Shown here: positions 1 to 8,485 of the stretch, one piece after another | Layout: every line of letters begins with the position of its first letter | How positions within the stretch are numbered: position 1 is the stretch's first letter | UHGV virus genome: UHGV-0302546 | DNA length: 8,485 nucleotides | Strand: one strand, 5' to 3' | Source of the DNA: a virus | Made by a program: the position numbers and the translations under genes | The notes under the pieces: model-generated | Databases searched by the model: none | What the model saw: only the letters and a program-made list of their open reading frames with translations | Told to the model about the DNA's origin: nothing

Positions 1-336
1 AACCAGACGGCAGAAAGCATGCGCCACGGTGAACGAAAACGAGCCAAACTGTGATACCAGTCCGGCAGCCCTGCCCCTGTCAGCGAGAGATAAATCCGTG
101 CAGTTAATTCCGTAAATCACACGGTCAACCTGCGTGTTACGCGGCAATGCGAGCTGTGCAGATAAGGTCCCGACCTCATCACGATACTGGCGGGAAAGCG
201 TGGCAAGGTTGCGGGTGGCAACATCGCGCTCAGTCCGAAAATGCTCACGTTCGGGCAGCGTCAGGCAGGGACGACCAAGGGCAACGGATGCCGCGTCGAT
301 GGCGTTATACGCTGTAAGGATGGCTGATTCAGTCAT
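1..336 (-). CDS. N-terminal 112 codons of a protein transcribed divergently from the RHH-like genes; probably the N-terminus of the replication initiator (continues past window start)
   Basis: Minus-strand frame from ATG at 336..334 is open to position 1 with no stop (checked codon by codon) and has coding-like GC-rich composition. The plus-strand ORF 134..382 is its shadow. No Shine-Dalgarno upstream, so start is uncertain (alternative GTG at 357). Frame is contiguous with the replication gene at 8485 if the sequence is circular or tandem. Confidence 0.5.
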   Translation of the reverse strand, partial: MTESAILTAYNAIDAASVALGRPCLTLPEREHFRTERDVATRNLATLSRQYRDEVGTLSAQLALPRNTQVDRVIYGINCTDLSLADRGRAAGLVSQFGSFSFTVAHAFCRLV

Positions 337-360
337 AAAAACGAATAAAAAACGCACTGA

Positions 361-437
361 TGTTAAAGTGTTAACAGGTTAACACTCATAATTTTTATGG
401 GTCAAGTGAAAATGTTGTCTTGTTAAACTGTTAACAG
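361..437. promoter_or_regulatory. Divergent promoter/operator region with iterated GTTAAM hexamers
   Basis: GTTAAA/GTTAAC hexamers at 362, 370, 378 and again at 422, 430, each spaced 8 bp. 368..385 GTGTTAACAGGTTAACAC is a 16/18 palindrome. Lies between the divergent ORFs starting at 336 (-) and 451 (+). Candidate -10 CATAAT at 387..392 (+) and -35 TTGACC at 405..400 (-); exact promoters not resolved. Confidence 0.5.
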
Positions 438-450
438 CGGAGATGAACGA

Positions 451-633
451 ATGAAAAGAAAGGCAATAGCAATTACAGAATCAACATATCTGGATATTAC
501 TAGGATAGCCCTTGAGATAAGCCAAAAAACAGGGCAAATAGTTACATGGTCGGAAGTTGTACACTTTATGATAAAAAACTACTTAAACGACGCAAAACAA
601 GACATGATCCACCAAAGAAACCAAAAAAAATAA
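451..633 (+). CDS. Small (60 aa) putative ribbon-helix-helix DNA-binding protein (candidate phage repressor)
   Basis: ATG at 451 with GGAG at 439..442 (8-nt spacer). Sequence shows a predicted N-terminal beta-strand (AIAITE), helix, K-T-G turn, then helix TWSEVVHFMIKNYL, the RHH (Arc/CopG/MetJ-like) pattern. Paralogous to the 705..917 ORF. Confidence 0.6.
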   Translation: MKRKAIAITESTYLDITRIALEISQKTGQIVTWSEVVHFMIKNYLNDAKQDMIHQRNQKK

Positions 634-684
634 CATAGTAGTTACCTATCGATACGAAGATTCCTAAGAAGCAATATATTGACA
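619..684 (+). repeat. Direct repeat copy A (about 60 bp) spanning the stop codon of ORF 451..633
   Basis: taacatagtagttacctatcgatacgaagattcctaagaagcaatat (631..677) matches 1160..1205 at about 90%, with an identical 21-bp core agttacctatcgatacgaagatt... Contains the 8-bp palindrome TATCGATA. The preceding A-rich stretch is also shared. Confidence 0.7.
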
Positions 685-704
685 GGACATAGAGGTAAAC
701 TGTG

Positions 705-917
705 ATGAAAAAAGAAACAAAGCGCGGAGACACAACTGTAAGAATCAACGAAGACAGAAAATTGGAGCTAAAACGAAGAGTGCTAGAAATCGGCAATAAG
801 ACCGGTGAGATACTAAAACCATCTGAAATAGTTAATCACTTAATAGACAATTACTTAGATGAGGCCGTGAAAGATTTAATAAGCAGAGAAGAACTTAAGA
901 AAAAAAGAGCAATGTGA
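705..917 (+). CDS. Small (70 aa) putative ribbon-helix-helix DNA-binding protein, paralog of ORF 451..633
   Basis: ATG at 705 (GTG at 702 also in frame) with AGAGG at 691..695. TVRINEDRKLELKRRVLEIGNKTGEILKPSEIVNHLIDNYL aligns with ISQKTGQIVTWSEVVHFMIKNYL of ORF1 (about 15/26 identical in the helix-turn-helix B segment). Confidence 0.6.
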   Translation: MKKETKRGDTTVRINEDRKLELKRRVLEIGNKTGEILKPSEIVNHLIDNYLDEAVKDLISREELKKKRAM

Positions 918-973
918 TTCCTTTCCCGGCATCGAACAGACGGGCTGACAAAGATCAAACAGAGGTAGTAAAA

Positions 974-5773: not shown

Positions 5774-5789
5774 TGTCGTTAAATAACTA

Positions 5790-6032
5790 TCAGGTCGCGC
5801 GGGAAAGGAAGCCTTTGATGATACCGATACCCAGACGGGCGGCCAGTGAAACACCAAGAACGGCAAATGCCGCCGTACCTGCAATGCCAATCACACTGAT
5901 GAGCGCGTCGCCAATTTCTTTAACAGTATCAGCAGAAATAAAAGACGGAACCTGAACTGCGGCAGATGCAGGAAGCGCAGCGACAGAAACAGTCGTTGCC
6001 AGACCAGATAAAACAAGGGTTTTAAGTTTCAT
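5790..6032 (-). CDS. Major coat protein (pVIII-like), 80-aa precursor
   Basis: ATG at 6032 with AGAGGA 5 nt upstream (tracked start at 6050 is a TTG). Signal peptide [24 protein letters not shown]; about 56-aa mature protein with N-terminal acidic residues, central hydrophobic helix and basic C-terminus (KGFLSRAT). Confidence 0.8.
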
Positions 6033-6056
6033 AAAATTCCTCTTTGACAATTAAAA

Positions 6057-6227
6057 TTAATTAACAGCATCGCTGAACATCCGGCAGACCAGAGTGAAAA
6101 TAACACCAAGGCCAAAGCCAAGAAGCCAGCAGACAATCCAGACATACAGAACGGCCCAGTAAAGCTCTCCGTCCTGTACGCCAGAATTCAGTGCGGATAA
6201 AACACCGCTGAAATCAAATTCAGTCAT
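6057..6227 (-). CDS. Small hydrophobic protein (56 aa from ATG 6227), minor coat pIX/pVII-like by size and position
   Basis: One TM segment (YWAVLYVWIVCWLLGFGLGVIFTLV). The ATG overlaps the stop of the upstream small ORF (ATGACTGA), suggesting translational coupling. No SD. Tracked start at 6260 is a GTG. Confidence 0.45.
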   Translation of the reverse strand: MTEFDFSGVLSALNSGVQDGELYWAVLYVWIVCWLLGFGLGVIFTLVCRMFSDAVN

Positions 6228-6360
6228 AATAACGCTGAACAGTAATGCTTTGTGAGTCACAGGCGCGAATCAGTTTTATTCCGATGCCAAAACCTGAAGA
6301 AAATAAAATCATTGCAGGCGCAGCAAATAAAACAAAGTTCAGAAAATCAGCGTCAGACAT
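6220..6360 (-). CDS. Small hydrophobic protein (46 aa from ATG 6360), minor coat pVII/pIX-like by size and position
   Basis: MSDADFLNFVLFAAPAMILFSSGFGIGIKLIR.. has one TM segment. The ATG lies 4 nt after the stop of the 141-aa ORF. Tracked start at 6414 is a TTG inside the upstream gene. Confidence 0.45.
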   Translation of the reverse strand: MSDADFLNFVLFAAPAMILFSSGFGIGIKLIRACDSQSITVQRYYD

Positions 6361-6364
6361 ATCA

Positions 6365-6790
6365 TCAGCCTTTTTCTTTACCTGCGGGCAGTGCACCCAG
6401 CGGCTGACCGTCAAAACGTTTCATGGAGCCGGAAATAAAACGATACCAGACACCATGACGTTCAGAGCCTGTCGACCATGAGTTAACATCAACCGTGAGA
6501 TAAACAGGTTTGCCCTGCAAATCAGGACATGAATTAAAAAATTTAAAATCCTCCTCAGTACAGGAAAATCGCTCATGCTCCTCACGGCGGACTTTTAATT
6601 TTCGGTCCTCATACGGATAGCCAATAACAATGGCATATTTGGGTTTAGCCTCAGGGTTATAATGAGAACCCGTGGGTTTTAACTCCTCATCATTTATGAC
6701 AGTGGCGTGAATAAAAAATCCCGCCATTGTCATACCTGCAGTAAAACCCTCAGGGGAAGGAAACGGAAAACTGTCGTAAATTTGATTCAT
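6365..6790 (-). CDS. 141-aa protein in the gene V position (candidate ssDNA-binding protein; function unproven)
   Basis: ATG at 6790 with GAGGAG 8 nt upstream. Immediately follows the replication gene and precedes the small coat genes. No recognisable motif; larger than Ff pV (87 aa). Confidence 0.5.
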   Translation of the reverse strand: MNQIYDSFPFPSPEGFTAGMTMAGFFIHATVINDEELKPTGSHYNPEAKPKYAIVIGYPYEDRKLKVRREEHERFSCTEEDFKFFNSCPDLQGKPVYLTVDVNSWSTGSERHGVWYRFISGSMKRFDGQPLGALPAGKEKG

Positions 6791-6820
6791 AAATCAGACT
6801 CCTCAATGTTAAAAATTCAG

Positions 6821-8485
6821 TCAGGGACAGTTATTGTCACAAGTCCAAGGGTCGGCTTCGCCGCCCCCACCCGCCGCGCGGGAGCGCGTCGTGCGGTGTC
6901 GTGAAGCCGACGAAATAAACACAGATTCATAGCTGCTGCCGCTTCTGACTTCCTCTGCGCGGATTTTTTCTGCGGGGGTCATACGGCGGACAACACAGCC
7001 CATAAAACGGGTTATGACCGGAACGGGGCCAAACATGAAACCGGAAATCACCGGTGCGCAGGGTTCACCGTAACGATTAAAACGGGGTTTACCACCTTCC
7101 TGCGGCTGAACGTAAAACGGACGAAGCAGACGTTCAGAACAGAAGAAACCGCCGTTCAGCAGGATATAGGTCCGGAAATCGCCTGCATCACAGGCCATGC
7201 GGATGGCTTCCAGTTCGGCGACCTGCTGCGGCGTGAACTGCTGCATATTGATATGATGCGCCTCAAGCGGTGCGCGGAAGCTGCGCATCTGGCGGTAAGC
7301 CGTAACGGAGGGAACGCCAAAGAACTGGAACAGGCGAAGGCGCGTTGCTTTCTGCCAGCAGGCGGCACGGCTGACGGCATCACAGAATGAACGGGCAGAA
7401 TAACGGTCATTCAGGGCGGTAATACCATCCGCACTGACATCACCCGCCATTTTGGTGATGTACTTCACGATGTAACGGAAACCATCACCCTTTTCAGGGT
7501 CAATAGCCTCAATACGAATACGGTGCTCTTTCGCCCCCTTTTCATCCGGCTCATCGCGCATGGCCTCTTCACGGAAAATGGCCAGCACCGTTGCGCTCTC
7601 ATGGGGATTGCAGTAAATCAGGAAATTCCAGTGCGTTGTACCGTCAGCATGAGGCTCGACCGTACGCAGGCCGGGTATCTGAATACCGGCTTTATCCAGT
7701 CTGCGGCAGACCCGACGCCAGACGGTATTCAGCCAGGCGTGCGAATCCTTAACGGTCGGGCAACCTGCTTCCCACCATTTTTTATTTGGACGAGAATGCC
7801 ATTTTCCGGCAACCTTAAAACTGGTCGTCGGGTGAAAACGTGACGGCGTGGTGAGCACGATGAAGTAGCCGGACAGACCCATATCTTCGGACAGTTCACA
7901 GACGGCCTTTCCACGAACGCAGAGTTCAGCAATCCGGTTTTTCGGATTCGAAACAGAGGCGTTATGCGCATCTTCCAGCGTACAGACCAGCTCATTAAAC
8001 GCATCAAAGACACCGGAGGACCGGAGATACTTTTTCACGCGTTTACTGCGGACAGCAAACAGGTCACGATGCCAGTCAGAAATATAAGGCGCGTTGCGGT
8101 TCAGTATGCCGAGCATGCGACAGACCTCATTGACCCGCTGGTCACGGATAACCCGCAGGAAACGGGTGACAAAAGCCAAATCAGTCAGACGCTTAAGCAA
8201 TCCCTCATCGCCGTAACGCTCATGATAAGTGGCATAAACGGGGGCGAAATCAAAGCCGGAGATGGCCTGAAAATAGGCCATCACATTGAGAAGGTGATGC
8301 TCTGGTACATCACTATAAATGGCCCGAGAAACAAGGCAGTCACGAACAACCGAATCAGCCACCTCAGCAATCTGCTCATCAGTGCAGAAAAGCGAGAATT
8401 CATAAAGGTCTCCGTCCTGATTGAAGAAAGCAAAACGGTGCGCGGACTCAAGCGCCATCAGCGAATTTTTCACACCGAGCTGGTA
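6821..8485 (-). CDS. Rolling-circle replication initiator protein, 5'-truncated at the window edge (at least 554 aa in window)
   Basis: Frame is open from 8485 down to the TGA at 6821..6823; the tracked M at 8473 is a GTG, not a demonstrated start. Contains Y-I-V-K-Y-I-T-K (7451..7474), the two-tyrosine motif 3 arrangement recalled from phiX174 gpA / P2 gpA-type initiators. First gene of the Ff-like order. Confidence 0.85.

Follow-up and report, generated by a model that had tools for sequence, protein, structure and literature searches.

The virus genome UHGV-0302546 was analysed here as a single stretch of 8,485 nucleotides (hereafter the window), both edges of which lie within open reading frames (ORFs) of the minus strand. 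These two frames raise the question of whether they belong to unrelated genes or are the two parts of one gene, and, in the latter case, whether the window is a complete unit of a closed or repeated element. The original prediction had favored the latter and read the in-phase edges as evidence for a circular genome or a tandem array. The window is almost certainly exactly one 8,485-bp unit of a filamentous phage of Escherichia coli, a temperate member of the Inoviridae, with the line break inside the replication gene, rep. The finding itself is ordinary: a circular or tandemly repeated genome has been written as a line and cut within a gene. What the analysis establishes is the closure of the ends, the identity of the genes, the position of the phage attachment site (attP) and, in relatives, integration at the chromosomal dif site and the presence of tandem arrays.

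The replication gene at the two edges of the window

On the minus strand, an ATG at 336..334 opens a frame that runs to position 1 and ends there on a codon boundary, after 112 codons (MTESAIL...AFCRLV). At the opposite edge, a minus-strand frame that begins with the codon 8485..8483 contains 554 open codons and reaches a stop at 6823..6821. The remaining two minus-strand frames close after 4 and 11 codons at the right edge, and at the left their open stretches reach just 26 and 38 codons. Joining 8485 to 1 yields a single ORF of 666 codons plus a stop, in which the 5' part of rep (codons 1-112 with the ATG; 1..336, minus strand) continues directly from 8485 and the 3' part (codons 113-666 and the stop) occupies 6821..8485 on the same strand. 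The original prediction had described both open frames and calculated a joined ORF of about 666 codons; its coordinates and arithmetic proved correct. No terminal direct repeat of at least 8 nt was found in the 8,485-nt window, which is therefore a single complete unit whose ends abut.

Phase agreement alone is expected by chance in about one case in three. It is weak evidence by itself and would also fit a coincidence, in which two unrelated truncated genes happen to lie at the edges of a linear fragment. Chance does not account for it, because other records match both the joined protein and the junction DNA. The joined protein is identical to WP_282621166.1 (666 aa) at 663 of 666 positions, with neither gap nor duplication, and its counterpart in E. 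coli strain AST205 is an intact gene of 2,001 nt, annotated as "replication endonuclease" and encoding 666 aa. At the DNA level, we built an artificial junction from the last 600 and the first 600 bases of the window (1200 nt). It aligned in one piece and without a gap, over 1200/1200 bases, to 8 E. coli chromosomes, the best record reaching 99.3% identity, and on all eight the match falls within a gene annotated "replication endonuclease". At least 80% of the joined rep gene is held by 40 of 5,426 complete E. coli genomes. Given this residue-for-residue match to intact 666-aa proteins, and junction DNA that is unbroken in independent records, coincidental phase agreement is refuted and the probability that remains for it is negligible.

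Viral and metagenomic contigs also carry the junction. Scans of IMG/VR and of metagenomes were made with window-specific 45-50-mers, and the matches that they returned are relatives of the window (L003 and L010). An exact 40-mer across the junction occurs in four IMG/VR contigs, and in 4/4 of them position 8485 is followed by position 1. The IMG/VR contig L003 is circularly permuted with respect to the window, and its own ends abut at window 1772/1773. The metagenome contig QZMK01005467.1 (L010), with 99.8% identity to the window, has the junction in its interior, at 6202|6203. This contig has an exact 299-nt terminal direct repeat, through which it closes on itself into a unit of 8,409 bp. 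The terminal overlap that the original prediction proposed to look for was thus found in a close relative of the window.

Among deposited phage genomes, megablast with the whole window gave no near match; the whole window does match chromosomal prophages of E. coli. A search with the joined Rep protein of a collection of contigs holding one genome per species found no confirmed relative, and the representative genomes of that collection appear to be without the phage. With tblastn against phage genomes, the joined protein produced one alignment that spans the junction (aa 43-606), to the replication proteins of fs2 and VFJ (29.5% identity). The join itself, V112|Y113, lies inside the conserved block FGSF..TVA.AFCRLV.Q.G..N, and no insertion or deletion occurs there in homologues of 99%, 91%, and 61% identity. 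Alignment of the joined protein with full-length initiators, another proposal of the original prediction, thus places the junction within a conserved block that is gap-free even in the 61%-identical homologue. The three checks that it had suggested, when applied to relatives, each supported closure.

Judged by its sequence, the joined 666-aa protein is a rolling-circle initiator of the P2 gpA / fs2 type. The Pfam family Phage_GPA (PF05840) matches residues 206-457 with a score of 167.3 bits (cut-off 31.4), within the 3' part of the gene. In an alignment with P2 gpA and fs2 Rep, both tyrosines of the Y-x-x-K-Y pair (Y450 and Y454) are invariant, and the lysines next to this pair align as well. 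The motif EPH.DGT.H is also kept, the His of its upstream EPH being H391. P2 gpA shares this family, this motif, and the tyrosine pair with the window Rep; it differs in coming from a tailed double-stranded DNA phage, in being 25% identical, and in the second His of its metal-binding motif, which is Asn in the window. A sequence search of the PDB with Rep returned nothing.

The attachment site and integration at dif

The attP-like site that the original prediction had noticed in the interior of the window is real, and it consists of two dif-like sites in inverted orientation. Site B, on the plus strand (1365..1391), reads AGTGCGCACAA / TGACG / TTATGTATAAA, that is, a XerC-type arm, a 5-nt center, and a XerD-type arm. 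Site A, on the minus strand (1458..1426), reads AGTGCGCATAA / TGTGACACGCG / TTATGTTGAAA, with an 11-nt center between the XerC-type and XerD-type arms. The arms of both sites are identical to those of E. coli dif at 8-10/11 positions; for site A the figures are 10/11 for the XerC-type arm and 9/11 for the XerD-type arm, and the crossover with dif maps to 1445-1458. The 34-nt spacer between the sites (1392..1425) is associated with a perfect 14-bp inverted repeat (1390-1403 and 1415-1428). A strict search of the window for the 28-nt dif, with at most 3 mismatches, gave no match. The dif-like sites were seen on allowing centers of lengths other than 6 nt, together with a repeat finder and the mapping of prophage ends.

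As single-stranded DNA, the minus strand of attP is predicted to form one long hairpin (-40.2 kcal/mol, z = -9.9) with a 6-nt central bulge, and the fold predicted for the plus strand is weaker (-36.8 kcal/mol). Rfam returned only sub-threshold matches to a plant microRNA model at this hairpin, which were rejected as chance.

The position of attP is fixed by prophages in two strains, whose ends map there and coincide with E. coli dif. In AST205, the prophage array starts at window 1445 and ends at window 1458. Its left junction has the sequence AGTGCGCATAATGTATATTATGTTAAAT, one change away from dif, and the chromosome on either side matches the flanks of the unoccupied K-12 dif exactly. The dif flank sequences read ...CAGACATGATTTAACATAATATACATTATGCGCAC and ...ATTATGCGCAC(C/T)AATATAAACCAAGG. 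In strain E100341, from the Gambia, the prophage ends are likewise at 1445 and 1458 and the flanks are those of K-12 dif. Both strains carry two tandem copies, located between fimbrial genes and hipA. The E100341 copies are unlike each other, with 95.9% and 97.4% identity to the window, and this difference points to successive integrations rather than to a duplication.

At the hipA-side junction of AST205 (25760-25772) and of E100341 (4768-4780), the XerC arm has as its outermost base a T (in this orientation), the phage type, where K-12 has C. A simple exchange of the XerC arm would have kept the chromosomal base. The T may reflect a variant dif in these two strains, or it may be the trace of an earlier integration and loss.

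These prophage ends also bear on the idea of a single integrated prophage that fills the window, bordered by host DNA and with a rep gene truncated at both ends by rearrangement. The relatives are indeed integrated prophages. Their ends, however, lie at window 1445 and 1458 and not at 1 and 8485; the attP region is intact, with phage sequence on either side, and no host gene was found within the window. In the relatives no host DNA adjoins either edge; its presence there is one of the findings that the original prediction had named as speaking against closure. A single prophage with such boundaries is therefore very improbable, and the closed unit remains the preferred reading.

In phages of the CTX type, attP consists of two sites in inverted orientation, whose centers measure 12 bp and 5-7 bp, and a single strand of it folds into a substrate for the XerC and XerD recombinases (PMC4246890). 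The features by which such a Xer-exploiting element can be recognized in sequence are present in the window: a pair of inverted dif-like sites in which one center is long and the other short, a predicted hairpin, and no integrase. Neither Pfam nor PHROGs detected an integrase or recombinase domain among the ORFs of the window, the long ORFs being replication and morphogenesis genes. In the relatives AST205 and E100341, integration is exactly at dif, and dif is regenerated on one side. From these features, the element would work like CTXphi, YpfPhi, and CUS-1.

Free circle or tandem array

The window, with one exact period and an arbitrary break inside a gene, has the look of a circularized contig. 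In AST205 and E100341, however, the sequence corresponding to window 1..2669, with the whole attP included, is contiguous between tandem copies. The DNA between copies equals that of the closed circle, so that sequence alone cannot separate a free circle from a collapsed array; the two are life-cycle states of one phage type. The alternatives in the phrase "circular genome or tandem array" are inseparable in this respect, and the closure that they share is supported by the gap-free 666-aa alignments and by the unbroken junction DNA of independent records.

No finding speaks against closure as such. Some observations have to be weighed against our interpretation. The first concerns the junction, where MAFFT alignment of the joined Rep with fs2 Rep and P2 gpA (25-30% identity) places a 2-column gap. 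The original prediction had named a gap of this kind as a possible refutation of closure. We rejected it as such, because the N-terminal 200 residues are poorly conserved and barely alignable at 25-30% identity, and because homologues of 61-99% identity align without it. The second concerns the initiator. Proteins of the PF05840 family have a His-hydrophobic-His (H-U-H) motif, and the window Rep has H397-W-N399 at this place (window 7291-7299), compared with H-W-H in P2 gpA and H-N-H in fs2 Rep; in addition, the His that follows H391 in the motif EPHHDG is Ala. Both H-W-N and this Ala are conserved in relatives down to 61% identity, and the catalytic competence of the initiator is here assumed. 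The third is that none of the 5,426 complete E. coli genomes contains the phage as a separate circular replicon, so that the free circle is undocumented for this lineage.

This last point leads to the reading in which the unit does close, and the window is a repeat unit that was collapsed by the assembler or cut from a chromosomal tandem array at dif. All of the rep matches in complete E. coli genomes (124/124) are chromosomal, with a median of 2 places per genome and up to 11, and two tandem copies are present at dif in both AST205 and E100341. Moreover, the junction between copies has a complete attP and is collinear with window 1..2669, and a collapsed array would give exactly the window sequence. 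Yet phages of this type also form circular replicative forms and virions with circular single-stranded DNA, as described for YpfPhi (PMC4266046), and copies that differ as much from the window as those of E100341 (95.9% and 97.4% identity) would not collapse cleanly. We consider an array origin possible, at somewhat less than an even chance. It is a sub-case of the original prediction and does not contradict it; under either origin, the window is one exact unit of the phage.

Gene content, relatives, and place among filamentous phages

The genes of the window are arranged as in a filamentous phage: rep, a cluster of genes for small proteins, and the genes for pIII, pVI, pI, and pIV follow one another on one strand, and three small genes lie on the other. 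The family Inoviridae is further indicated by the pI/Zot ATPase, a pIII with a Gly-rich linker, and a small closed genome (class of about 5-15 kb) with a rolling-circle initiator. All of the following morphogenesis genes are on the minus strand. A pIV-type secretin of 412 aa (1512..2750) matches PF00263 (E = 9e-25), and a pI/Zot-type assembly ATPase of 403 aa (2912..4123) matches PF05707 (37 bits, cut-off 20.3). Next to it, a pVI-like minor coat protein of 118 aa (4126..4482) falls in PHROG 1944, with a weak match to DUF5455, and a pIII-like adsorption protein of 420 aa with a Gly/Ser-rich linker (4485..5747) matches PF05357 (Phage_Coat_A) above the cut-off. The GGGSS-type linker is encoded by tandem repeats of 15, 30, and 75 nt at 4944-5121. 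The number of these repeats varies among the window, the contig L010, and E. coli prophages, the protein being 420 aa here and 465 aa in AST205; the length difference between L010 and the window is located in this Gly-rich repeat region.

Two smaller genes on the same strand occupy positions that fit the filamentous gene order for the coat and single-stranded-DNA-binding proteins. The first (5790..6050) encodes a protein of 86 aa whose N-terminus is signal-like and whose core is hydrophobic, and has a weak match to PHROG 17608 (E = 3e-4); its position and composition make it the candidate major coat protein. The second (6365..6790), directly downstream of rep, encodes a 141-aa protein that belongs to PHROG 30648, a phage family of unknown function, and matches Putative_G5P below threshold (E = 0.057). 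It is, by position, a candidate single-stranded-DNA-binding protein.

The three plus-strand genes begin across a divergent intergenic region of 114 bp (337..450) that separates them from rep and is a candidate operator/promoter. It contains repeated TGTTAA/GTTAACA motifs (361-384 and 421-436), with 16-nt inverted arms that are 94% complementary; a consensus promoter scan of 337-450 found no site. The first gene (451..633) encodes a 60-aa candidate regulator and the second (702..917) its 71-aa paralogue, 42% identical, both in PHROG 2503. The third (914..1162) encodes a protein of up to 82 aa and of unknown function in PHROG 5219, annotated as 62 aa in E. coli AST205. Pfam gave no match for these small divergent proteins. 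The AlphaFold model of the 60-aa protein has an extended N-terminus followed by two helices (mean pLDDT 85.7), and a Foldseek search of the PDB with this model gave no match at E <=0.001; a ribbon-helix-helix repressor is our guess from the model. The original prediction had seen here a coherent arrangement of repressor and replication gene. The replication gene of this arrangement is assigned to PF05840; with neither a Pfam match nor a significant fold match, the repressor role is only plausible.

Two further observations concern this part of the window. Downstream of both the first and the third plus-strand gene stands a copy of a 43-nt direct repeat (624-666 and 1153-1195; 93% identity), which suggests the duplication of a module made of a gene and its downstream signal. 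Similarity to most relatives ends at about 330-338, at the rep start codon, and resumes only near 957-1190 or 1512 (L002-L005). The regulatory region is a mosaic module open to exchange, as immunity regions are in other temperate phages.

Another intergenic element, of 140 bp (2764..2904), separates the stop of pI/Zot from the start of pIV. Several hundred records of enterobacterial plasmids contain sequences that match it at 81-98% identity, among them 2.7-kb RepL plasmids of E. albertii and IncFII/FIB virulence plasmids of Salmonella; in the latter, the counterpart is unannotated and located ~620 bp downstream of repA. As single-stranded DNA, it is predicted to form two strong hairpins (z = -6.6). 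We would guess that it is a primase-type single-strand initiation site, acting as the complementary-strand origin of the phage. It presumably resembles the "G site" of IncFII plasmids.

Among known systems, CTXphi is alike in being a filamentous phage without integrase that forms tandem arrays and integrates at dif, regenerating dif on one side. It also has an inverted pair of dif-like sites, with centers of 12 and 5-7 bp compared with 11 and 5 nt here (PMC4246890), and an initiator, RstA, to which the window Rep is related (30% identity over aa 167-606 by tblastn). The two phages differ in host and in sequence, and the spacer between the sites is 34 nt in the window, as against about 90 bp in CTXphi. 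The window is without toxin genes, and its regulatory genes have no detected similarity to rstR, in line with the lack of Pfam matches for the small divergent proteins. It also encodes its own pIV secretin, which CTXphi is not known to do.

YpfPhi of Yersinia pestis and CUS-1 of E. coli O18:K1:H7 are listed as related CTX-type members (PMC4246890). Both are filamentous phages of enterobacteria, about 8.7 kb long, whose 13 ORFs lie in two orientations (PMC4266046), and thus resemble the window in host group, size, and layout. YpfPhi, of 8.7 kb, integrates at dif in 2-4 tandem copies (PMC4266046), and dif integration, tandem copies, and an inverted pair of XerC/XerD binding sites are common to these phages and to the element described here (PMC4266046, PMC4246890). 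The window does not look like CUS-1 itself, a judgment made from matches in E. coli genomes and not from the CUS-1 sequence: few genomes match rep or the Zot gene, and no O18:K1 strain is among the matches listed. Among deposited phage genomes, the replication proteins closest to the window Rep are those of the Vibrio phages fs2 and VFJ (Inoviridae, Saetivirus; 29.5% over aa 43-606), and genome size is similar too, at 8.6 kb. The sequence similarity is distant and confined to the initiator, and fs2 differs in being listed as a VGJ-type phage, with a single double-stranded attP (PMC4246890).

With blastn, which reached down to about 65-70% identity, rep was matched in 48 and the Zot gene in 54 of the 5,426 E. 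coli genomes. Related rep genes are therefore present in <1% of complete E. coli genomes, and most strains among the matches listed are of human origin. A copy with 95.6% identity over 83% of the window, in three matching places, was found in OV141394.1, a 362,852-bp record from Citrobacter youngae labelled as a plasmid; the lineage is therefore not confined to Escherichia.

Some of the relatives are sister phages in which both the small regulators and the dif-like attP are missing. In the E. coli O166:H15 strain JNE070796 (L012), the rep and morphogenesis genes of the sister phage share 94-98% identity with the window, and in E. coli strain 2012C-4221 (L018) about 67-74%. In both, a gene for a transposase of the IS110 family, which is RNA-guided, lies directly upstream of rep instead (12414-13379 in L012; 7410-8363 in L018). 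The insertion sites of these phages are near ybiB/hcxB or ybaV/ppiD and away from dif. AST205 itself, besides its two dif-integrated copies, has a 98.8%-identical match to the Zot gene at about 0.87 Mb, far from dif. There is about an even chance that the phage of the window and sister phages with 95-99% identical rep and morphogenesis genes belong to a lineage of E. coli inoviruses not yet described. In this lineage the integration module could be exchanged (a hairpin attP for XerCD or an IS110 transposase), the complementary-strand origin would be shared with IncFII and small RepL plasmids, and the initiator would be of the H-U-N type.

For CTX-type phages, the formation of new circles and the production of phage from tandem prophages depend on rolling-circle replication (PMC4246890). 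By analogy with CTXphi and YpfPhi, the initiator of the window would nick the double-stranded form and drive rolling-circle synthesis of the packaged strand, which is probably the sense strand of most genes, i.e., the minus strand of the window. This strand would be coated and extruded via pI/Zot and the pIV secretin. Alternatively, it could form a hairpin from its inverted dif-like sites (1365-1391 and 1426-1458), and the host XerC and XerD would recombine this hairpin with chromosomal dif. Successive integrations would build tandem arrays, from which the initiator could spin out new circles. In this scheme, the need for Xer, the choice of packaged strand, the location of the plus-strand origin, and a regulatory role of the small divergent genes are inferred.

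For the annotation of this genome, the two edge ORFs need to be entered as one gene, and features near the edges have to be read on the closed sequence. What is known of the mechanism of dif-integrating filamentous phages of the CTX type is unchanged by this finding, which adds to them a member from E. coli.

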